From NCBI GenBank assembly GCA_018610125.1, contig JAHEOI010000383.1, positions 1 through 35,308 on the forward strand: a stretch of 35,308 bases of DNA. The letters run 5' to 3'. This stretch comes from Verrucomicrobiota bacterium. GTDB lineage: Bacteria; Verrucomicrobiota; Verrucomicrobiia; Limisphaerales; JAHEOI01. The translations under genes and the position numbers were made by a program. Below, in pieces: positions 870 to 12,202 of this stretch (within the stretch, counting starts at the first letter, position 1; each line of letters begins with the position of its first letter). Below the pieces are notes generated by a model that saw only the letters and a program-made list of their open reading frames with translations, was not told where the DNA came from and made no database searches.

Positions 870-1277
870 GTTCTTTAACGATAAAGCCGGAGCCCAATAC
901 ACTGAAATCGCCCCAAACGCGTATTGACTTAAGGTCTCTCCATACCCTGAACGGTAGTAGCGCCTGCGCTCTGCCGGGAACCACCCCCACGCAGCGCGAT
1001 CCCTAAACGCTCAGGAAACGATCCGGGCTCGCTTCAGTACAGGTCGCACCCGCCACCGGAGCGAACGCTGGATTACATCCCGGTGGACCATGAGACGGCA
1101 ATCGTTCACAAGGCCCCCCGGGATCACAGGCAAGCCTTCGGCGTGATGCTCGGTTCAGCACACCAAGCTCCCGCGACCCAACCTTACTCCTATGCGCCTC
1201 ACCTGGCGCCCGAAAGCCCGCCGACCCTCTTGCTCGATCACGCGGGCCGGCTATTGCCTCAATCGGCCTGAGGTTGG

Positions 1278-1712
1278 CTACTGGCTAATTTCAACCAGCT
1301 CCACGTCAAAGAGGAGGTTCTTGCCGGCGAGCGGATGATTGGCATCCACTGTGATATTTTCCTCACCCACGTCGGTAATCACGAGTCGCATCTGCTGCCC
1401 TCCGTCTGTCTGGGCTTGCAAAACTTTGCCTTCTTCGGGCTGCACATCCGAAGGGAGCTGGCTCTTCGGCACCTGTTGGATGAGATTGTCATCCCGCTCA
1501 CCGAAGGCTTCTTCAGAGGAGAGCCGCACCTGTTTCTGTTCCCCTTGTTTCAGTTCCTGAACCGCGTTTTCGAGTCCCGGAATAATCTGGCCTTCACCAA
1601 TCGTAAACTCGATGGGGTCTCGATCGTACGACGAATCAAAGACGCTGCCATCCTCTTCGAGAGTGCCTTTATAATGCACTTTCACCTTGTTGCCTTCTTG
1701 TGGTGTTTCCAT
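1278..1712 (-). CDS. slyD: FKBP-type peptidyl-prolyl cis-trans isomerase (SlyD-like, no His-rich tail)
   Basis: VKVHYKGTLEEDGSVFDSS, FTIGEGQIIPGLENAV, VDANHPLAGKNLLFDVEL motifs. ATG at 1712 is preferred over 1760. Confidence 0.9.
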   Translation of the reverse strand: METPQEGNKVKVHYKGTLEEDGSVFDSSYDRDPIEFTIGEGQIIPGLENAVQELKQGEQKQVRLSSEEAFGERDDNLIQQVPKSQLPSDVQPEEGKVLQAQTDGGQQMRLVITDVGEENITVDANHPLAGKNLLFDVELVEISQ

Positions 1713-1992
1713 TAGATCTGTCTTATTTGGTTTGGTCTTCGGGATCTTGATCGCGCTCATTTCCGCACTGGCGCAGTCAGCTGCTACCTTATCAATCCAT
1801 GCGGTCTTGCCCGATCCCGTCCATCGTGCGTCGCCCGGCAGCTCAAATCGAAACCGTGGCGGGCGCCCCTGGCACTATCCCGACTTACCGTTATTTCAAT
1901 CACCCTAAGAGCAAGCAAGGGATACATCAAGCAGCCATTTGGATCCGTCGTTTCTGCCACGCACGAAGCGTTGCCGAGACACGTGAGACGGA

Positions 1993-4521
1993 TCAGCCGG
2001 GTAATCTATCATACCGCGCGGCGTACCGTTTGAGCAATGCCGACGCAACTTCCTGCCAGATGTGGACCTTTTCAAATGAGTCCAATACCAGCTCCTTTTG
2101 CGGAATCAGCAGGCGATACCACGACGAATCATGCAGTAGCTCCCAAATTGCTTCCTTAGAGATCGTCAAGTGATACCAAGCCCGCTCCACCTTGAAGCGA
2201 TGCAGCTCAAAATAGAGTGCGTCCAGATCAAGCAGGCAGACATGCTTGGCGGTCAGGTGCCCTTCGTTCCGGCCTTTTTCGACGTTACCGCTCCGGATAT
2301 CTTGAGACCTTATGGCCTGAATCTCGGGGTACCAGTTGAGCACCACAGGGCTTTCGATCAGGTGTTGGGTTGGCTCGTCGTGCTCCGCACTCGGCTTTCG
2401 AAGGGTCAGGATCATCCCCCGCTTCATGGAAGCAGTGCCCGGTCTTGTGCTCACGGGCTTGCTCGTTTTGACCGAGCGTGCGGCATGATGTCCGAGGAAC
2501 GATACGCCTTCGTCTTCGAGGAAGTCGCGGAACCGCGCCATGTAATCGGCTTTGATGCCGAAGATATTAAGAGTCTCAAGCTCACGCATTTCCTCGGGAG
2601 GCTCGACTTCCTCCGGCAATTGCACCTTGCTGCTCCGCTTCAGGCACCGGTCGTACCCTTTCAACCGCACACCTCGACCAAAGAGCTGAATGATTTGAGA
2701 TCCCTCTCCGCTTCCGACGTTCATCAGCCCCATCGTGCTGACCCGCCAACTATCCCAGCCCTCGGTAAACTTCTTGGAGCCGATAAGGAGGTTGACCGTC
2801 GAGCTTGACTTGTTGATATCCCGAAAGAGAGATCCCGAGAAAGCCCGTTCGGTGACGACCAGCTCTTCCCGTTCGTCGCACAATTTGCAGAGCTGGGTGT
2901 CATTCCCCACGTTGATAACGCCAAACGGCTGACTGTCGCTTCCAAGCTTTAACGCGATTTCCCCTGGTGCCCCCTTTAGATTTTCCAAATGCAACAAGCC
3001 GCCGGCCGGGTTGTTGAACAAGGATGCAAGGATGGCATCGAATACCTGCTCCGCTGAGAGGTGGCAGTCATTCAGGTAACCGAATCGACCGGCAAAGATG
3101 TCCCGCCCATCTGCGTCACGCACTCCGTCATTCAGCACCCGAGCAATCCGTGCGACACTACCTTGCCGATCGCCAATGAATCGCGCCAGGAAAAGCAAAA
3201 TTTGCAGGATGTCGCTTGCCTCCTTCTTGCCCAGTCCGGCAGTCACACCCCCTCCGACAAAGACCCACAAAGGCTTCTCAAGATGGAACGGCCTCAATCG
3301 CTCTTTGTGCTTACGAAAGAGCCGTTGCTGCTGGTAAAAGGCAAGCAGACAACCGACAAGATACAATTCACGATCGTTTTCCGACGTGGCCTTGCCCGAC
3401 GTTGCCTCGGTGAGGTCGAGGTTCAGAATCTGAAAATCCTTGCCATAGCCATCGCTGTAAAAGAAGCGGTAGGAGTAGTCGAAAAGGACAGACCGAGCAT
3501 AATGATTGCTCATTCCCCTATCCCCTTTCACTGCCTGCCCGAACGTCGCCGAGTATTCAAACGAGAAGCCGTTCTCACACAACGCGTTTCGAAAGCGCAT
3601 CCATGCCCCCTCCTTGCCCCGAGTGGCACCTCGGTGTCCCTCATCAACAAGAACGAGATTATTTCCCTCAAAGGCATTCACGGCGATCGTCTTCTCACCC
3701 ATCTCGCTGCCGAGCTTGTGAATATCGATGATCTCAATCTCTTGCCATTCGCGGTGATGCCGCCCGTCCTTCCGGAACAGCCCGGCCCGCATTCCCGCTA
3801 CATCAAAGGCCTCAAGGTGCTGCCGACTCAGTCCCTCATTCGGCGTCAACAAGAGAATCCGGTTCAAGGGAGCGTGATTGCCATGCTTCTCTGAGTAGTG
3901 CCGATACTGGAGAATATTCATCTGCATGACGAGGGTCTTGCCCGAGCCGGTCGCCATCCAGTAAGCAAGCTTATTAAGCTGATGTCGTGCGTCGGCTTCC
4001 TCATTCATCGGAGGGACTCGATCCGAAGCCGGATGCGTGGCATTGTACGCCTCGATTTGCCGATTAAGGCTCTTCACCAAGGCATCGGGATCACGGAAAT
4101 AATGATCGAGGAAGACCTCGGTAAACAACAATGTCAGGTATTGAAAGTACTTCCACGTAATCGACTCTTCTCCCTTCACCAATCGAGCCTCGTTTAGCTG
4201 CCGTGTGTGCCGGACAATATTTCGGTCATACGCCAACAGGACTTCAGGTGGCAGCGTCTCACTGTTTTCCATTCGATCAGCGAGGGCGTAATAAAAATGG
4301 TGCACATTATTCTCATCCAGACCTTCGATTGCATCCGTGTCGATGCCGAATTTTTCCTTGAAAGCCCCCAGCAATGGCATTCGTCCTCTCGGATCGTCGA
4401 CATAGCCGTCGCTTGATTGGAGACCAAACAGTGTAAACAGCCACTGGTTGAGCGCCAGTTTGCGCGCGAAAGGCACCTGTTGCCGGTCATCACCCCGTCG
4501 TTTGGTCTCTCGCTTGGTCAT
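1993..4521 (-). CDS. res: Type III restriction-modification Res subunit (SF2 helicase/ATPase), apparently lacking the C-terminal nuclease domain
   Basis: Motifs WMATGSGKT (I), LVDEGHRG (II), YSATF (III), KKFTEGWD (V) and QLFGRGVR (VI); directly downstream of mod. No PD-(D/E)xK motif is seen before the stop. Confidence 0.9.
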   Translation of the reverse strand: MTKRETKRRGDDRQQVPFARKLALNQWLFTLFGLQSSDGYVDDPRGRMPLLGAFKEKFGIDTDAIEGLDENNVHHFYYALADRMENSETLPPEVLLAYDRNIVRHTRQLNEARLVKGEESITWKYFQYLTLLFTEVFLDHYFRDPDALVKSLNRQIEAYNATHPASDRVPPMNEEADARHQLNKLAYWMATGSGKTLVMQMNILQYRHYSEKHGNHAPLNRILLLTPNEGLSRQHLEAFDVAGMRAGLFRKDGRHHREWQEIEIIDIHKLGSEMGEKTIAVNAFEGNNLVLVDEGHRGATRGKEGAWMRFRNALCENGFSFEYSATFGQAVKGDRGMSNHYARSVLFDYSYRFFYSDGYGKDFQILNLDLTEATSGKATSENDRELYLVGCLLAFYQQQRLFRKHKERLRPFHLEKPLWVFVGGGVTAGLGKKEASDILQILLFLARFIGDRQGSVARIARVLNDGVRDADGRDIFAGRFGYLNDCHLSAEQVFDAILASLFNNPAGGLLHLENLKGAPGEIALKLGSDSQPFGVINVGNDTQLCKLCDEREELVVTERAFSGSLFRDINKSSSTVNLLIGSKKFTEGWDSWRVSTMGLMNVGSGEGSQIIQLFGRGVRLKGYDRCLKRSSKVQLPEEVEPPEEMRELETLNIFGIKADYMARFRDFLEDEGVSFLGHHAARSVKTSKPVSTRPGTASMKRGMILTLRKPSAEHDEPTQHLIESPVVLNWYPEIQAIRSQDIRSGNVEKGRNEGHLTAKHVCLLDLDALYFELHRFKVERAWYHLTISKEAIWELLHDSSWYRLLIPQKELVLDSFEKVHIWQEVASALLKRYAARYDRLPG

Positions 4522-4571
4522 CCTTTCCCTTCCTTAAGCCTGACACTCCTCAAAGTGATACGGTAATCCAA

Positions 4572-7500
4572 TCACCCCTCAAACATGAGTCGATGGAAGT
4601 CCTCCTCGATTAACCGAGCTTTCCAGGTGTCATCCGCGGCTCGCACGACTTCCAGATTGTGATCGCCGTTGACGTAAATCAGGTCCAAGTCGTGGTCGCG
4701 TCCGACCAAGCCCCTCCTTTTGAGCCACTCATTAAGAACCAAGTTGTCCTGTTCGGCTCCTTCCCGAGGACCGAGCTCGATCGCCTTCGGCATTTTTCTC
4801 CAGATCACCAGTGCTCGCTTACCGTCAGGCAGCGTCCCCCTGACCGTCCGGAACCACCATAAGTCTCGGAGGTCGCCTGTCGGGTCCGGCTCCAAGGGTC
4901 CCTGAAGCCCGAGGTGCCCTTCTGGCGATCGCTCAAGGGCCACTGTAACAGTTTGCGGCGCCGCGATGTGCTCCACTCGCAGCCCGATAAGATAGTTGAA
5001 CGTCTCCAGCAGATCGATTTGGGTCTCTCGGCTCGCCCCACTGCCGGCCGGCTTCACTTTGAGCTTGTAATTCGTGGGGTCCAAGAAGGCGTCGATGTTC
5101 AGCAAGGAATTACTGCCTCGCGTCTCAACATCAAGGAAGTAACGAAGCAGGTATTGCTCCTTGAGTCCGCCGTCCCCTTGGGCCTCGGTTGACGCCAGGG
5201 CGTTCCGCCGTGCCTCGGTCCGGTTTAATTCCAAGTTATTGAGTGTGTCCTCGTACGACTCGAGGCGGAGGTATTTCACGACTTGAGAAAGGCCATCCTC
5301 GCTCTTTGGACGCCCCTCTCTCCAGTCACTCGAGTAAGCCGCCTTTACTACGCGCGGTTTCGTCACCGTATCGAAGTAATCCCCCATTTCCACGAGCAGA
5401 TACCCTCGGCTCCCGCCGTCTTGCCTGTTCAGACTGATCACGGCGTGTGCGGTCGTTCCCGAGCCCGCAAAGTAATCAAAGATCATGTCGGCGCTGTTCG
5501 ATACGGCAAACACGCAGTCCCTCACCGTATAGAGGGATTTCGGGAAATCAAACCGCCCTTTTTCAAAGCCCATATTCGTCAAAACCTTGGTACCATAATC
5601 GCCTGCGTTGTACCGGGACCCGTACCATACGGTCTTGAACTGGGTATCCGCCTTGGCCTTCATAATCCGGAGGTGACCGGATCGCGCCTTGTCTACCTTC
5701 AAGTGACGTTTGATTTTGGCCACCGTCTCGCGGGCATACCGCCATTTTCGCTCGACACCGTCCGCATCGACCGGATACACCGCGACGGTTCCATCGTTCA
5801 TTTGCACGTTCGGCCGGGCGGGATGGAAATCGTCATCGCACACATCGCCGAATCCGACAATCTTGTGGTCCTTCACATAAATCGGATAGAAGCAATTCCT
5901 CCCATCGTGGCGCAGCGACTCACCACCCCAATTTCGAAGGTTCGCGTATTCCCATTCCGTTTCGGGGAGCTCTGCCCGATTCAACTCGGCCAATTCCGGT
6001 GAGAGAACAAACACGGCAAAATCGTTTGTGTAGGAGAAATAACGCCCTTGCACTCCTTTACGATTGTGCTCGATTGCCACTGTTGTGATCGAACAATCAG
6101 GAAACATCTCCATACAGATTCGCTCAAGTCCGTTGCGCTCGTTCTCGTCGATCGCAATGACACATGAGCCATCTTCGGTCGACAACGAACGGGCAGCCTC
6201 GAGGCGATCGTGCATCAACGAAAGCCAAGAAGAATGCTTATAATTATTTTTGTATGCGATCTCGCTTGATAGCGAATTGTAAGGCGGGTCAATGTAGGTA
6301 CATTTGACGCCCTTCTCATAGCGTCGCTGCAATAATCGGATCGCTTGATAATTCTCCCCCTGCACCAGGAGTCCGTTTGTTTGATCTTCCAGCCCATGTA
6401 GGTTCTCAAGAATGCGCGCAGCCATCTCTTTTGGGAAAAGTGCCGTGTCGAGAGGGAGATAGGGATGCGCCCGCAAGAAATCCGTTGTCAACGGCTCCGA
6501 ATACCCGAACTTGGCCTTGAGGTTATCAATTTTAAACAGTCGAGCCCATTCCCTTCGCTGAGCATCATTTTGGGCAATCTCCGGATAAAACGCCTCAGGG
6601 ATGCGGTCGAGGGTAATGCAGTAATGGGCTTCAACGACAAACTTTTTCTTGAGCCAAAGCTTCTTTTGAAATTCTTCGAGCTGAGCGAGGAATTCGATAA
6701 TCTTATGGGCGATCTTTCGAATCACTTTAATTTTCGACAAACACTGCTCCAGTCGCGAGCCCGCTCCCGACTCCAGATCGTCCAGGTGCATGACCTCGTT
6801 TTTCACATAGAAATCGAGCTCCCGCCGAAGAAACCCGCCAAGATCCTTATGGATGAAATAATCAAAACTGTTTCTAGCGACAAATCGTTCCAGATGAGCC
6901 TTTAAGCGGCTGTAGCCGACCCGCTGACCGTTCGTATTGATTTCGGGCTTGGCCAACTCCGCCATCCATGGACGCAGAGACTCCGCCTCGACTGCCAATA
7001 GCTGATTAACCATCCGCTCGGTCAACTCCTTCTGTTTCGGCGGCTTCGGGCGCTTTTGACGCTTTTCTTGGCTCTTTCGCTCGTCCTCCGGCCAATCGCC
7101 CATTCTCGCCGGACGATCCTCAAATCGGATGACAAGCTCCCCCACCTCCTCAACGATCGAAGGTTCGCTCGCAAGCACCAGTACCCGATCGCCGTCGGCG
7201 GCCTTAACATTGTCGTGTTCCTCTTCCACCGCCCCCACCAAACGAAACCGCACTCGCATCGGATTTTCGTGGCTTTCGTCGTCTTGATGAGGCTTAAGTT
7301 TGAAGACGTAGTCGCTGAGAGACCGCCCGCTTTTGATATAGTATTGGTCACGATTGGCCCAGTGGAGCTTGACTTCTTCGCCCTCGTACGGAATCGCGTA
7401 GACGCCCGGCTTGTAGACGCGGTTGGGCAGAAAATCGCCATCTTGATAATAGCGACGGAAAAAGCGATAGAGGTGATCATAGACCTCATTCTCAAGCTGG

Positions 7501-7721
7501 GCGATATCCGTGCCTTTTTCGAAGGTGTCGGTGTCCTCCTTGGACGGACATTGTTCTTTGAAGGCCTCGCGGACCTGTGGCAGCAGCTCGTTATCCAGGA
7601 AATGGGTGATCTCGCCGGCCTTGACATGCATGATCCGATAGAGACCGAAATCCAGCTCGGGCCGGTCGAGCTGAAACAGCTCCTTCAGGAGAAGTATGAG
7701 CTGGTCGTGTTTCCGGCTCAT
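4572..7721 (-). CDS. mod: Type III restriction-modification DNA methyltransferase (Mod)
   Basis: YIDPPYN catalytic motif precedes DYFAGSGTTAHAV SAM motif (beta class); N-terminal LDFGLYRI, YYIKS and DYFIHKDLGGFLRRELDFY motifs; C-terminal LESYEDTLNNL. Confidence 0.95.
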   Translation of the reverse strand: MSRKHDQLILLLKELFQLDRPELDFGLYRIMHVKAGEITHFLDNELLPQVREAFKEQCPSKEDTDTFEKGTDIAQLENEVYDHLYRFFRRYYQDGDFLPNRVYKPGVYAIPYEGEEVKLHWANRDQYYIKSGRSLSDYVFKLKPHQDDESHENPMRVRFRLVGAVEEEHDNVKAADGDRVLVLASEPSIVEEVGELVIRFEDRPARMGDWPEDERKSQEKRQKRPKPPKQKELTERMVNQLLAVEAESLRPWMAELAKPEINTNGQRVGYSRLKAHLERFVARNSFDYFIHKDLGGFLRRELDFYVKNEVMHLDDLESGAGSRLEQCLSKIKVIRKIAHKIIEFLAQLEEFQKKLWLKKKFVVEAHYCITLDRIPEAFYPEIAQNDAQRREWARLFKIDNLKAKFGYSEPLTTDFLRAHPYLPLDTALFPKEMAARILENLHGLEDQTNGLLVQGENYQAIRLLQRRYEKGVKCTYIDPPYNSLSSEIAYKNNYKHSSWLSLMHDRLEAARSLSTEDGSCVIAIDENERNGLERICMEMFPDCSITTVAIEHNRKGVQGRYFSYTNDFAVFVLSPELAELNRAELPETEWEYANLRNWGGESLRHDGRNCFYPIYVKDHKIVGFGDVCDDDFHPARPNVQMNDGTVAVYPVDADGVERKWRYARETVAKIKRHLKVDKARSGHLRIMKAKADTQFKTVWYGSRYNAGDYGTKVLTNMGFEKGRFDFPKSLYTVRDCVFAVSNSADMIFDYFAGSGTTAHAVISLNRQDGGSRGYLLVEMGDYFDTVTKPRVVKAAYSSDWREGRPKSEDGLSQVVKYLRLESYEDTLNNLELNRTEARRNALASTEAQGDGGLKEQYLLRYFLDVETRGSNSLLNIDAFLDPTNYKLKVKPAGSGASRETQIDLLETFNYLIGLRVEHIAAPQTVTVALERSPEGHLGLQGPLEPDPTGDLRDLWWFRTVRGTLPDGKRALVIWRKMPKAIELGPREGAEQDNLVLNEWLKRRGLVGRDHDLDLIYVNGDHNLEVVRAADDTWKARLIEEDFHRLMFEG

Positions 7722-7744
7722 TGTGACTCTCCCTTAAGAAAATA

Positions 7745-8503
7745 CTATCGGCGTTTACCTCTCCGGTTTAACTCCACGCGCAGGAGCTGCGTCGTCCAGC
7801 GACGTCCTGTGCGAGTCCGGAATCCCTCTTCATTGAGCACACTAACGATGTCCTGGAAGGGAACCCCGCCCTCACGCTCCCGCTCGGCTTTGACCATAGC
7901 TTGCTCGAATTGCTCCTTGAAGCGATCCTTAACACTGACATGCACTCCGCTATTCTTGTGGTCCTTCCCTTCACGTTTTGCGGCCGCGCGCGCCTCTTTT
8001 TCCTTCCGTTTTTCTTCCTTCTCGCGAGACTGTGCTTTCAAAGCCTCTTGCGCCCGTTGTTTCCTCACTTCAGCGTCCTGATTCTTAATTTCCCGCAGCT
8101 TCTCCTCCAACCACAAATACACCTGATAATAGGGCGGTCCCTCAGACGAGCTTGCGGCAATTTTTTGATCGATCGATGCAAAGTCAATGTGATATTCGCT
8201 ACTGTATACATACCGAGTCATTGATTTCGTTCCATGCCGGATGGCGGATGGGCCGCTATTCGAGAGGGTGCTCAGCACCTCGGTGCAGAACGGCATCAGC
8301 CATGCACGAGCCTGCTCCTCCGTGAGACCGGCATACTTGGACCACCAGGCCAGCAGCCCGGTAAGCTGAATGCGCGGCGGATGCGCCTTCTGAAGTCGGT
8401 CCGGCTCAGGCCCCTGTAGGATCAGCTTTTTCAACCAATATGGAACCTCCGTCTGGGTCCCGCTCAGGGCCTCTTGCAGTATTGTCAGATGTTTCTGTCT
8501 CAT
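7745..8503 (-). CDS. Hypothetical DNA-binding protein: helical N-terminal domain, charged coiled coil, C-terminal recombinase-type helix motif
   Basis: 252-aa ORF fills the gap between the permease (11 bp) and mod (23 bp). The C-terminal IVSVLNEEGFRTRTGRRWTTQLL matches the I-x3-LN-x2-G-x2-T-x2-G-x2-W pattern of the serine-recombinase DNA-binding domain. No catalytic YxRvS motif. Confidence 0.75.
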   Translation of the reverse strand: MRQKHLTILQEALSGTQTEVPYWLKKLILQGPEPDRLQKAHPPRIQLTGLLAWWSKYAGLTEEQARAWLMPFCTEVLSTLSNSGPSAIRHGTKSMTRYVYSSEYHIDFASIDQKIAASSSEGPPYYQVYLWLEEKLREIKNQDAEVRKQRAQEALKAQSREKEEKRKEKEARAAAKREGKDHKNSGVHVSVKDRFKEQFEQAMVKAEREREGGVPFQDIVSVLNEEGFRTRTGRRWTTQLLRVELNRRGKRR

Positions 8504-8514
8504 TGGTTTCTTAT

Positions 8515-10044
8515 TTACTTATTTTCCAAAAACGAATTAAGCCCCATACGCTCGACTTGGAGGCCTTTCGGGATAAGGAGGCGATCCAAGATGACAAACA
8601 ATCCTTGGATAAGAATTGCCAACAGCGCCGCCGGGACCGCCCCTTGCAGAATGGTCCCGGGAGCGTTAAGATTCAAGCCGCTGATGATCGGCTGTCCCAA
8701 GCCCCCCGCACCGATAAGCGCCGCCAAGGTCGCTGTCCCGACATTAATGACGGCGCTTGTCTTCACGCCGGCAAGTATGGTTGCCGAGGCCATCGGGAGC
8801 TCGACCTTTAAGAGCCTAGTGCGCCAATCCAATCCCAAAGCAATGGCCGATTCGCGGATGGATCTCGGCAGGCTCTGCAGGCCGGACGCCGTATTGCGGA
8901 CAATCGGAAGCAAGCTGTAGAGAAAGAGCGCCAGAATCGCCGTCAACGGGCTGATCCCCAAGAACGGGATCGATACCAGGATTGCCAGCAACGCCAACGA
9001 AGGGATTGTCTGCACCACGCCGGCGGCGCCCAACACGCCATTGCCGAGCCACCCCGGATAGCTTGCAATGATTCCCAACGGGATCCCGACAACGACGGCG
9101 GCGGCCATTGAAATCCCTACCAGATAGAGATGCTCAAGCGTCCGGCTCGGTATCGGGCGAACCCAGTCGAGCCGACCCTCAGCGTAAGAGGCATGGCTCG
9201 ATTCCCGGCCAAAAAAGGCCATTGCGGCTTCGGTGTAATCATCTGTCCGCTCCGCTTTCGCGTTGAGACGGGTCATCATTGTGCTGTCGATCCGGCCCCC
9301 AAGCCCATTAATCGCCCGCTTAACCCGTGAGGCAAGATTGGTTCGATACAGGAAGACAGCTTGGTACGCCGGAAAGAAGTTTCGGTCGTCCTCGAGCACC
9401 GTCAGGTTATAATCGGCAATCTTGGCATCGGTGGAATAGGCATCTTTGACATCGATCGTTCCATCTCGAAGGGCTGTGTAACCGAGCGCATGATCAACGG
9501 TACGCACATCGGTCATGGTGAGATTGTAACGGTTCGTCAACGGATGCCATCCATCATTCCGATTCATGAATTCATGGGTTAAGCCGACTGTCAGTTCGGG
9601 ATGCTCCCGAAGATCGCTGATCGCCTCGATATCGAGACGCCTCGCGTGCTCACGCCGCATCACGAGAGCATAGGTGTTATTGAATCCCAGCGCCTCGCTC
9701 ACCCCGATTCCCTGCGACACCAGCGCTTGACGGATCGCTTCGATCCCCGAAATCGAGCTTTCCTTCAGGATCTGTTCTCGAATAGTCCCGGTGTACTCCG
9801 GATAGAGTGCGATTTGACCGTTCTTCAATGCGCGCCAGAGCACAATGGTACCGCCCATGCCCTGATGATGGACCACGTCAACGGTTTGTCGCTCCAACAG
9901 TATTCGGGCAATCTCACCGAGGACATACGATTCCGTAAACTTCTTGGAGCCAATGTGGACCTCCCGGGCGGCAGACCTGCCATCCGCGGCGCCCATCAGG
10001 AGTCCCATGCCGGCCAAAAGCAACGAAACAGGATAGCGTCTCAT
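8515..10044 (-). CDS. Glycine betaine/Opu-family ABC transporter, substrate-binding domain fused to permease
   Basis: Signal peptide, IGSKKFTESYVLGE, LYPEYTGT, GFNNTYAL, LEDDRNFFPAY (OpuAC-like); then QTIPSLALL, LLPIVRNT, ESAIALG (EAA loop), GAGGLG. ATG at 10044 overlaps the ATPase stop (ATGA). Confidence 0.92.
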   Translation of the reverse strand: MRRYPVSLLLAGMGLLMGAADGRSAAREVHIGSKKFTESYVLGEIARILLERQTVDVVHHQGMGGTIVLWRALKNGQIALYPEYTGTIREQILKESSISGIEAIRQALVSQGIGVSEALGFNNTYALVMRREHARRLDIEAISDLREHPELTVGLTHEFMNRNDGWHPLTNRYNLTMTDVRTVDHALGYTALRDGTIDVKDAYSTDAKIADYNLTVLEDDRNFFPAYQAVFLYRTNLASRVKRAINGLGGRIDSTMMTRLNAKAERTDDYTEAAMAFFGRESSHASYAEGRLDWVRPIPSRTLEHLYLVGISMAAAVVVGIPLGIIASYPGWLGNGVLGAAGVVQTIPSLALLAILVSIPFLGISPLTAILALFLYSLLPIVRNTASGLQSLPRSIRESAIALGLDWRTRLLKVELPMASATILAGVKTSAVINVGTATLAALIGAGGLGQPIISGLNLNAPGTILQGAVPAALLAILIQGLFVILDRLLIPKGLQVERMGLNSFLENK

Positions 10045-10775
10045 AAAAATGACAATGTTCGCTGCGCCGCCAGAAAGTCCGAGACAAACGGCTCGGCCGG
10101 CGACTCCCAAAGCGCTTGGAACGTCCCGACTTGAACTACTCGCCCCGACTCGAGCAACACGATCCGATCGCCGAAATACGCCGCCTCTGCCATATCATGC
10201 GTGACCAGCACAACCGTTCGCTGCAGCCGTTGAAAGATCGCCCGCAGCTCTTGCTGCAAATTCGCCCGCACTATTGGATCGAGGGCTGCCAATGGCTCGT
10301 CCAGCAAAAGGAGCTCCGGGTCCAAGATCAGCGCGCGCATCAAGCTGACCCGCTGGCGTTGTCCCCCGGAGAGCTGAACCGGATATCGTGCCAGCGCCCC
10401 TTCGGGAAATTTGGTCAATTCACAAAGCCAAGCAAGCCGGGCTTGATTTGTCTCTTCGGAGTAGCCCAAATACCGTGCCATCAACAAAACATTGTCGCGG
10501 ACCGTCATGTGTGGGAAGAGTCCCCCATCCTGGACAACATAGCCAATGCGACGTCGAATCTCAATGGCGTTGCCCTGATTCACATCCCGGTCTGCGACGC
10601 GAACGCGACCGCGCGTCGGAGAAATCAGAAAAAGGAGAAGCCTTAGCAATGTCGATTTGCCGCATCCACTCGGCCCGATCAGTGCGATCGTCCTTCCTTG
10701 CGGCAGGCTCAACGTAACCTCATTCAGCGCGACGTGCTCGCCAAAAGAGACCGTAACCTTTTCAAATGTCACCAT
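10041..10775 (-). CDS. Osmoprotectant-type ABC transporter ATP-binding protein
   Basis: GPSGCGKST, RRRIGYVVQDGGLFPH, LSGGQRQR, LLLDEP and VTHD motifs. Start MVTFEKV at 10775 overlaps the egtD end. Confidence 0.95.
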   Translation of the reverse strand: MVTFEKVTVSFGEHVALNEVTLSLPQGRTIALIGPSGCGKSTLLRLLLFLISPTRGRVRVADRDVNQGNAIEIRRRIGYVVQDGGLFPHMTVRDNVLLMARYLGYSEETNQARLAWLCELTKFPEGALARYPVQLSGGQRQRVSLMRALILDPELLLLDEPLAALDPIVRANLQQELRAIFQRLQRTVVLVTHDMAEAAYFGDRIVLLESGRVVQVGTFQALWESPAEPFVSDFLAAQRTLSFL

Positions 10776-11760
10776 GCGTTTCGCTGAGAAGGTACTGCAC
10801 ACTGAAATAGCGCTGCTCATCCATCCAGACCTTTTCAAGGCGATAACCCGACCGGTGGATTAACGATTGAAATCCGCCCAATGTGTATTTGTAAGAATGC
10901 TCCACCGTAACCGGCTCGTTCGGCTCAAAGTTGACCGTAACACCCGCAAGGGTAATTGTTTGCCGACACGTGCTCACGAGCTGGTTCTCGACACGCCCGG
11001 CTTCCGCATTGTAAAACGCCCGGTGACGGAAGGCGTCGAGGTCAAACCCCGCTTGCAGTTCACGATTGGCGCGAGCGAGGATATTCTTGATAAAGCGAGC
11101 AGTGATCCCACGGGGATCGTTGTAAGCAGATTCCATCACAGAGCGCTCTTTTTGAAGATCCATGCCCAACAGAAAGGCATCCCCAGGATTACTTATTACG
11201 GCAAAACGTTTCAGGAAGGAAACGACCTCGCCCGGCTCAAAATTGCCGATCGTCGAGCCCGGAAAGAAGAAGACCGTTCGCTGAAACGCTCGCGTCGGCG
11301 TTGGAAGCTTAAGGGGCTTATGATAATCGGCGCAGACCGGCAACACCTCCGTTCGCGGATGACGTCGGCGGATGTCATGGGCCACCTCGATAAGCTGCTG
11401 CTTCGAAATATCGATCGGTATATAGGCAACGCAATCCTCCAATGCGCTCAAGAGCAGCTCGGTCTTGGCGCTGCTGCCGCTCCCCAGGTCGACCAGCACC
11501 GCATTCGGTCCGATCGCGCTCACAATTTCATTCAGGCAGCCTTTAAGGATCGATGTCTCCACCCGTGTCGGGTAATACTCTTCAAGCCCACAGATTTGCT
11601 CAAAGAGATCGGCTCCGACATCGTCGTAGAGGTACTTGCAAGGGACCCACTTCGGCAAATTTTGGAGCCCTGTCAAAAGGTCGCGCTGGAAATCGCTCGG
11701 GGTCGGCTCCACATCGTGAAGCACCACCTTCTCTTCGTGCGTCTCGCTGCCATGCTCCAT
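10762..11760 (-). CDS. egtD: L-histidine N-alpha-methyltransferase (hercynine-forming)
   Basis: PCKYLYDDVGADLFEQICGLEEYYPTRVE, DLGSGSSAKT, FFPGSTIGNF, AYNDPRGITARF, EHSYKYT. Start is uncertain (11760 vs 11883). Confidence 0.92.
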   Translation of the reverse strand: MEHGSETHEEKVVLHDVEPTPSDFQRDLLTGLQNLPKWVPCKYLYDDVGADLFEQICGLEEYYPTRVETSILKGCLNEIVSAIGPNAVLVDLGSGSSAKTELLLSALEDCVAYIPIDISKQQLIEVAHDIRRRHPRTEVLPVCADYHKPLKLPTPTRAFQRTVFFFPGSTIGNFEPGEVVSFLKRFAVISNPGDAFLLGMDLQKERSVMESAYNDPRGITARFIKNILARANRELQAGFDLDAFRHRAFYNAEAGRVENQLVSTCRQTITLAGVTVNFEPNEPVTVEHSYKYTLGGFQSLIHRSGYRLEKVWMDEQRYFSVQYLLSETHGDI

Positions 11761-12202
11761 ATCATGCTCTGTCCCACAATGCCGGTCCGATATCGGCCGG
11801 ACCGGATTCCTCACCTTATTCTCAAATGCGCCCTCAAGCAGTGCCTGTATCGCGCCTTCATCAACTTTGGCAAGCTTAAACACCTCTCCATCACGTCACA
11901 AGCACAAAGCCTGCCCGGCGCGGTCACAAGCCCTATTTTTTGAGCGCGCCACTTGACATATTCCGCCAAACAGAAAAAAAAGAGAGACCGAGTCATGATA
12001 ACCGGTCCGGATGTTATGTTTGGCAAACAGCCTATAGGGACACTCCGACACTTTTTTGGGCGGCGGGAAGCTGTAATTCAGCCGCTCCCCTCAATGGCGG
12101 GAGTGGAACAACCCGAGGGATGGGACACACGCCCAAATCGGCGCAAGCGAATTTGGTTGAGAAGAACGGTCTATTGGAGGGCGATCTTGGAGGGCGATCA
12201 GC

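Follow-up and report, generated by a model that had tools for sequence, protein, structure and literature searches.

We analysed a 35,308-nucleotide (nt) stretch of Verrucomicrobiota DNA (the window; contig JAHEOI010000383.1 of assembly GCA_018610125.1), in which a sequence-only reading had described a restriction-modification (R-M) pair of Type III with a nuclease-less Res subunit. We found that the res gene of this pair breaks off where the endonuclease domain of its relatives begins, and that a second strain carries the same break. The explanation that we favour, with moderate confidence, is a disarmed R-M cassette which persists as a methylase and whose Res remnant is under relaxed constraint but not lost. 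A deletion would have taken the last ~255 res codons and fused codon 837 to unrelated DNA, which supplied five codons and a stop. The complex would then be unable to cut DNA because the nuclease domain with its catalytic aspartates is absent, and restriction would be lost. The complete Mod would keep methylating one strand of an asymmetric site. The truncated Res, with all its ATPase motifs kept, is probably still made as a Mod-bound, ATP-hydrolysing motor subunit.

Type III cleavage is ATP-dependent, takes place ~25-27 bp from an asymmetric site and needs two inverted sites. The two open reading frames (ORFs) were as previously described, and PADLOC recognises both subunits. On the minus strand, mod (4572-7721) and res (1993-4521) are co-oriented neighbours with a gap of 50 nt. 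The mod gene encodes a full-length, 1049-aa beta-class DNA methyltransferase (Pfam N6_N4_Mtase, PF01555, E 1e-21; PADLOC MTase_III, E 8e-195), and res encodes an 842-aa superfamily 2 (SF2) ATPase subunit (Pfam ResIII, PF04851, E 2e-11; PADLOC REase_III, E 2e-172). The helicase-like ATPase core of Res (2665-3948, minus strand) extends from motif I, GSGKT (residue 192), over DEGH (293) and SAT (324) to motif VI, QLFGRGVR (612-619). Adjacent co-oriented genes, a beta-class Mod and the SF2 motifs, all expected of a Type III system, were present; the PD-(D/E)xK domain was not.

The C-terminus of Res reads ...KRYAARYDRLPG*. The match to the PADLOC REase_III profile PDLC03654 stops at position 874 of 1154. 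In our alignment A1, the relatives extend beyond our Y837 (codon 2011-2013) with ...YTFRKxEWELPHLEYRDL... and ~255 further aa, including GNFHPDFI and FVDPKG. The last five residues, DRLPG, have no counterpart in this alignment; together with the TGA they make up the deletion junction (1993-2010, minus strand), five unrelated codons after the point at which family homology stops. The loss of the nuclease that had been read from the letters was borne out by these comparisons. The homologues were collected with Res residues 400-842 as query; 7999 of 8000 candidates scored E≤0.001, and 107 of the best 120 listed were 1040-1125 aa long. A metagenome scan with Res found 62 relatives, the best of them with 63% identity over a partial match (78% over a short fragment); a near-identical strain was not among them. 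None of 40 genomes of the same order carried a Res homologue, and a sequence search of solved structures with profile A1 gave no match at E≤0.01. One 837-aa Res homologue (P0061, on a 638,791-bp contig) likewise stops at the helicase/nuclease boundary (...ERYYTFRKYE) and may be a second nuclease-less or split copy.

The comparison with characterised systems assigns the pair to the SNF2-associated Type III family that includes Eco86II and EcoR22I, and not to the EcoP15I kind. Our Mod aligns end to end with that of E. coli NCTC86 (33% identity, E 2e-172), and our Res residues 1-837 align to residues 1-870 of the 1126-aa NCTC86 Res (38% identity, E 0). The NCTC86 cassette is probably Eco86II, judging by the description in Murray et al. 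2021 (PMC8259958), and the sequence link rests on the NCTC86 chromosome record. The likeness includes the mod-then-res order, the long Mod (~1040 aa) and a ~170-aa N-terminal Res extension. Our locus differs in that Res is without the last ~255 aa and the SNF2 gene is missing. The gene order is SNF2 (963 aa)-methylase (1040 aa)-helicase (1126 aa) on the NCTC86 chromosome, and helix-turn-helix (HTH)-SNF2-methylase (1046 aa)-helicase (1120 aa) on an E. coli plasmid. A ~960-aa SNF2 gene (PF00176 and PF00271) lies directly 5' of mod in 39 of the 50 related loci with at least 3 kb of upstream sequence. Our window gave chance matches only (E≥0.97). The other 11 of these loci are likewise without an SNF2 gene; the SNF2 genes of our genome are generic (29-36% identity) and on other contigs.

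Murray et al. 2021 (PMC8259958) describe Eco86II as a Type III enzyme whose methylation product at GAGCC is N4-methylcytosine (m4C) and whose cleavage falls ~25 bp 3' of this site. The extra helicase-like (SF2 ATPase) gene 5' of its mod is reported there from >500 genomes and as dispensable for methylation and for the observed cutting. According to the same source, Eco86II Mod alone methylates fully, while DthLIII and FnoB1III methylate only when res is co-expressed. For EcoR22I, Silas et al. (bioRxiv 10.1101/2023.04.06.535777) report that the Res substitutions D1024A/D1043A abolish restriction of lambda-vir, while the protection of phage grown on the mutant shows that methylation persists. 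The same preprint states that Ocr-triggered cell death needs both subunits and was reduced 100-fold, not abolished, in this mutant. Residues 1024 and 1043 of the NCTC86 Res are the D of FYPDF and the D of IDPKG. Since D1024 and D1043 lie in these motifs, the deleted domain corresponds to the experimentally defined catalytic domain of the family; the equivalent aspartates are within the deleted part and are absent from our Res.

Two side observations concern these relatives. In many of them one or two extra genes stand between mod and res, for example a Fic/DOC gene (L003:6759-7964) or a GmrSD-type nuclease (L025:6124-7920), and these look like swappable cargo within the cassette. In addition, a 298-nt piece of the plasmid-borne res (query 1934-2231) is found again, 99.7% identical, on many plasmids of E. 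coli, where the annotated feature is a 'DUF1158 domain-containing protein'; it looks like a widely spread fragment of the plasmid res.

The lost part is a PD-(D/E)xK nuclease domain. In an alignment of 42 C-terminal domains (consensus GNFYPDFILW...FVDPKG), P148, D149, D166, P167 and G169 are invariant and K168 is present in at least 90%, which confirms the FYPDF...DPKG motif that the sequence-only reading had proposed for the residues beyond the break. An AlphaFold model of the domain had a mean predicted local distance difference test (pLDDT) score of 87.1 and a predicted template modelling (pTM) score of 0.83. With residues 100-254 of this model, VIA-align placed the Bax1 nuclease at the top (Z 8.3, root-mean-square deviation 3.1, 113 aligned), followed by BstEII (Z 8.0) and BsaWI (Z 7.8) and then by Cdn1, Can2, I-Bth0305I, Bse634I, Cfr10I, Vsr, MunI, McrC, SgrAI and NgoMIV; named endonucleases occupy 8 of the top 12 rows. 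The individual Z values are middling, Foldseek is weak by itself (best E 0.015, BstEII), and the nuclease profile A2, run against the sequences of solved structures, gave chance matches only (E≥0.17). We nevertheless consider the assignment secure, because the matches form a uniform series of restriction-type nucleases and the motif is invariant.

To place the deletion among the relatives, 142 related loci from genome and metagenome contigs were searched by tblastn with four queries. The matches of the relatives stop at query residue 837 in nearly all loci. We counted 115 loci in which Res extended at least to residue 825 and was followed by 780 nt or more; six further loci were too short to judge. 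The complete C-terminal domain was adjacent and in frame in 110 of them, and partial, frameshifted or displaced in five (L013, L026, L061, L079 and L141). The damaged copies have frameshifts or inserted DNA with the remnant still there. None of the 115 was without the domain, and it was never seen as a separate gene in these loci. Some family members are broken by insertions of 1-1.6 kb (L026:10466-12074, L071:9563-11021, L012:8420-9479), and the one in L026 sits exactly at the helicase/nuclease boundary, the point at which our res is cut.

We also looked for the nuclease elsewhere. The 280-nt spacer between the res stop and slyD (1713-1992, no strand) is without a nuclease remnant, and the 253-aa nuclease domain of the sister homologue P0007 had no match at E≤10 in a tblastn-type search of the whole assembly, so the earlier impression of an empty neighbourhood holds. 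The 42-domain profile gave a single chance-level match in the 3.74-Mb assembly (E 0.26, on another contig). The absence of the nuclease elsewhere in the genome applies to a 72.6%-complete assembly and is not proven beyond it. A nuclease hidden within the last ~200 aa of Res was not found either. The model of the last 198 aa, built with 41 homologous segments, had a pLDDT of 79.1, with residues 645-704 at 45-59 and residues 705-842 high. None of 48,161 chains matched this model at Z of at least 5; the best match (Z 4.1) was helical and not a nuclease, and the best Foldseek hit had E 4.1.

The truncation is not an assembly error, a concern raised with the original reading. We compared assembled contigs, not reads, of four public runs (X1-X4) over 1000-4600. 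In run X3, which is from another study, a 1236-nt contig covers 1260-2486 and crosses the junction at ~2010 with hundreds of bases on either side. In run X1, a 2501-nt contig covers 1161-3661, and this run is probably the source sample and so not independent. The contigs of X2 and X4 are neutral on the truncation, as they extend over portions of slyD and of res but do not include the junction. The X3 strain is ~96.5% identical and has the same junction, therefore the deletion is older than the split of the two strains. The idea of a recent truncation does not fit with a junction common to strains ~3.5% apart. A second contig of run X1 matches slyD to ~1758 and then continues with dissimilar sequence; it could come from a co-occurring relative with another slyD-upstream region, possibly without the cassette.

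The catalytic core of Mod is conserved, as judged from its sequence. DPPY at residue 478 (6279-6290) precedes FAGSG at residue 751 (5457-5471), both as noted before. Mod matches the solved Type III Mods 6k0w, 7dsu and 4zcf_A, with hits in the Protein Data Bank to the 6k0w Mod (6e-26), Mbo45V (1e-25) and the EcoP15I Mod (2e-18). The protein is probably active and most likely methylates one strand of an asymmetric site as m4C or N6-methyladenine (m6A). An m6A motif had been expected at first; the characterised family member Eco86II makes m4C, so m6A cannot be assumed. Neither mod nor res contains a tandem repeat of more than two copies, a homopolymer of at least 7 nt or a 2-6-nt unit that occurs four or more times as a repeat, so the gene pair is not a classical phase-variable regulator. 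Of the marks of a phasevarion, the inactivated res beside a kept mod is seen here, and the repeat tract in mod is not.

The comparison with the X3 strain points, with caveats, to purifying selection on the truncated res since the strain split. The X3 contig over 1260-2486 differs by 62 substitutions, and its 15 gap letters all fall at 1745-1861, as do the indels among the differences listed (40 of 139 rows). The contigs over 2466-4148 and 4153-4598 have 50 and 15 substitutions, respectively, and no gaps. For res, which shows no indel, this amounts to ~88 differences over 2529 nt (3.5%), a number derived from per-contig totals (35 differences are listed to position 1960, which leaves ~27 for 1961-2486). 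The slyD gene, read from Met17, differs at 12 of 432 nt (2.8%), 11 of them third codon positions, and the 280-nt spacer has 23 substitutions (8.2%) and seven indel rows. By Fisher test, res differs from the spacer (p=5e-4) and not from slyD (p=0.56). If the third positions of res diverge like those of slyD, changes at first plus second positions of res would stand to changes at third positions in a ratio of ~0.18. The truncated Res may still be functional.

The start of slyD matters for the length of this spacer. The longest slyD ORF begins at 1760, 232 nt from the Res stop, and the ATG of Met17 (1712-1710) lies 280 nt away. We favour Met17, which is probably the true start, because the X3 strain has indels at 1745-1766 (with a 1-nt indel at 1745). 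The earlier figure of about 280 bp between res and slyD stands for this start and falls to 232 nt for the first possible one.

The cassette sits in a series of five genes on the minus strand: slyD-like, res, mod, a 252-aa HTH gene and an OpuAC-permease fusion. The slyD-like gene (1278-1760) encodes an FKBP-type peptidyl-prolyl isomerase (Pfam FKBP_C, E 4e-23) and forms the chromosomal flank. The window is an entire contig of a metagenome-assembled genome, and the remainder of it carries housekeeping genes (a sulfatase, a DUF1559/N-methyl protein, acetyl-CoA synthetase, LpxD and others). No integrase or transposase was found among the contig genes, and flanking repeats, insertion sequence ends and att-like sites around 1761-8514 were not convincing. 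Promoter and terminator scans at the locus stayed at background level.

Only one neighbour is specific to the locus, a 252-aa protein that ends in a recombinase-like HTH (7745-8503, minus strand; Pfam HTH_62, PF20552, E 2e-6) and has a Lys/Glu-rich middle. Its gene lies 23 nt upstream of mod, in the position where relatives have the SNF2 gene, or an HTH regulator and the SNF2 gene. It was found in none of the 142 related loci, and a search of 5.8 billion proteins gave only three homologues. The look-alikes in a protein atlas are small hypothetical proteins tagged 'Recombinase' (score 0.92), and no feature marks it as an effector. We considered whether this protein could be the relocated nuclease and ruled it out (hhalign probability 0.07% against the nuclease domain). 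Further upstream, the OpuAC-permease fusion (8515-10110, minus strand) and an ATPase make up a glycine-betaine-type ATP-binding cassette transporter, which adjoins a histidine-specific S-adenosylmethionine-dependent methyltransferase (PF10017, EgtD-like). The genes at 8515-11883 (minus strand) may form a hercynine/ergothioneine-related unit.

A number of observations weigh against a maintained methylase cassette, and most of them would fit plain decay, in which both genes became functionless after the nuclease loss and erode as pseudogenes-to-be that have no stop yet. In a comparison with 107 full-length homologues, our Res (residues 1-836) deviates in 59 of the 385 columns with at least 95% conservation; the other homologues deviate in a median of 5 columns and the sister P0007 in 11. 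Residues 651-750 account for 27 of the 59. Our Res has a terminal branch of 0.496, and the sister one of 0.111. Residues 672-705 (2407-2508, minus strand) are degenerate, with an in-frame loss of 17 residues and many replacements; four invariant positions are gone within 681-703, and part of this segment is modelled with low confidence. A compensated frameshift in residues 672-720 was ruled out, since a homologue aligns in one frame only. For a paired view we took the 52 loci with both genes complete, 48 after removal of near-identical ones, and defined as close the 25 systems with a Res p-distance to ours of <0.46, so that the definition depends in part on our Res itself. Among these systems, 39 of the 277 conserved Mod columns are changed in ours (median of the others 3.6%, maximum 8.6%), and 44 of the 333 conserved Res columns (median of the others 1.8%, maximum 6.9%). 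This is 4- to 7-fold over the subfamily median, and each subunit is worse than in all other close systems. Decay would also agree with broken copies in ~4% of related loci (5/115). The missing SNF2 partner points the same way and may mean that more than the nuclease was lost here. No other locus among the 115 is without the domain, therefore nuclease-less forms do not seem to spread. Finally, the strain comparison draws on one other strain, one short spacer, contigs and a res count taken from totals.

Even so, we regard plain decay as rather unlikely. There is no stop or frameshift in the 1891 codons of res and mod, 842 of which are in res. A random substitution in res creates a stop 3.6% of the time, and the chance of an open frame is ~0.04 for 88 neutral substitutions and <0.001 for 200. 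Between the strains, res has diverged as much as slyD and less than half as much as the spacer. Columns with at least 95% conservation are changed on our branch in 11.7% of cases and looser columns in 35-47% (the sister changed at 0.9%), so that changes avoid conserved columns about three-fold. Of the subfamily-conserved columns of Mod, only 1 of 28 changed in the core (residues 401-800), compared with 16 of 92 in residues 1-200 and 17 of 99 in residues 801-1049. In Res residues 201-600, 16 of 180 such columns changed. An acceleration specific to Res over Mod was ruled out (Res/Mod distance ratio 0.890; 17 of 48 systems are as high). This pattern suggests relaxed but not abolished selection on the operon, with the best preservation in the catalytic part of Mod. 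The nuclease-less pair could alternatively be a selected non-cutting module, with Res needed for methylation or with the complex acting as a sensor of, or decoy for, anti-restriction proteins of phages, so as to trigger cell death or block replication. The need of DthLIII and FnoB1III for mod and res co-expression would agree with this, as would the residual Ocr-triggered cell death of nuclease-dead EcoR22I and the example of Ronin, a Type I R-M derivative without the HsdR nuclease that is reported to work as a decoy (bioRxiv 10.1101/2023.04.06.535777). The intact ATPase motifs, the signs of purifying selection on the truncated res and the rare gene directly upstream of mod could be read in the same way. 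However, Mod alone suffices for methylation in Eco86II, the closer relative, and the cell death of nuclease-dead EcoR22I is reduced 100-fold. Moreover, no recognisable effector gene is present, the upstream protein looks DNA-binding, constraint is relaxed rather than renewed, and the architecture is in none of the 115 related loci. As a full explanation of the locus this is quite unlikely. Supply of the nuclease in trans, by a gene of its own outside the assembled sequence or by another Type III enzyme, is very improbable. The incomplete assembly leaves space for such a gene, and for EcoP1I/EcoP15I a nuclease-dead enzyme together with a second active one is reported to yield a nick (PMC6158743). 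Nevertheless, the assembly holds no match to the domain and a single PF01555 methylase, with no second Type III system seen, and the domain is fused to Res in 110 of 115 loci.

The disarmed cassette kept as a methylase, one of two options in the sequence-only reading, therefore remains the best-fitting account, given the conserved Mod core and the D1024A/D1043A precedent. By analogy with DthLIII/FnoB1III-like dependence or a Ronin-like decoy or sensor, the truncated Res could be a selected, working ATPase partner of Mod in a non-cutting module. We hold this to be possible but doubtful. If true, it would be a nuclease-free device of Type III origin with a defence or epigenetic role. In nature, the disarming of R-M systems is common, and the fate of what is left over bears on the change from methylase to regulator and on the reuse of defence genes. 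With a deletion common to two strains and a remnant still in frame, the locus offers a simple test of whether the Type III motor has a role beyond cutting. If the motor subunit has no such role, this would be an ordinary decaying R-M cassette.

The loss of the Res nuclease with mod kept is an already known kind of disarming. Type III restriction is reported to require the single nuclease domain of each Mod2Res1 complex (PMC4005696; PMC6158743). Fox et al. 2007 (PMC1976455) describe a res truncation that removes the endonuclease domain, with mod retained, for H. influenzae 86-028NP and for 70% of the modA11-bearing strains of N. meningitidis. A figure legend on nontypeable H. influenzae (PMC4525171) uses the term 'an inactive restriction endonuclease' for the gene that lies downstream of modA. 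Our locus resembles these in the C-terminal Res truncation and the kept mod. The Haemophilus and Neisseria systems are, however, of the EcoP15I/HinfIII type, truncated by frameshift and with phase-variable repeats in mod, whereas ours has a clean deletion and no repeats. Ronin is likewise an R-M derivative that is retained without a nuclease, but it is described with its own dedicated 61-aa effector and demonstrated cell death, and nothing comparable was seen in our locus.

The closest counterpart is the nuclease-dead EcoR22I of E. coli ECOR22, an engineered equivalent from the same family, reported to have no restriction and to retain methylation. The point mutant keeps a folded domain, whereas our Res is without the entire domain, so that the locus represents a natural whole-domain deletion in the Eco86II/EcoR22I family. 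EcoR22I is also described as sitting with an SNF2 gene in a P4-satellite hotspot, while our pair lies between chromosomal housekeeping genes. Particular to our locus are the family in which the disarming took place, the clean boundary deletion without a remnant and a mod that is not phase-variable, together with a res remnant that bears signs of continued selection in two diverged strains.

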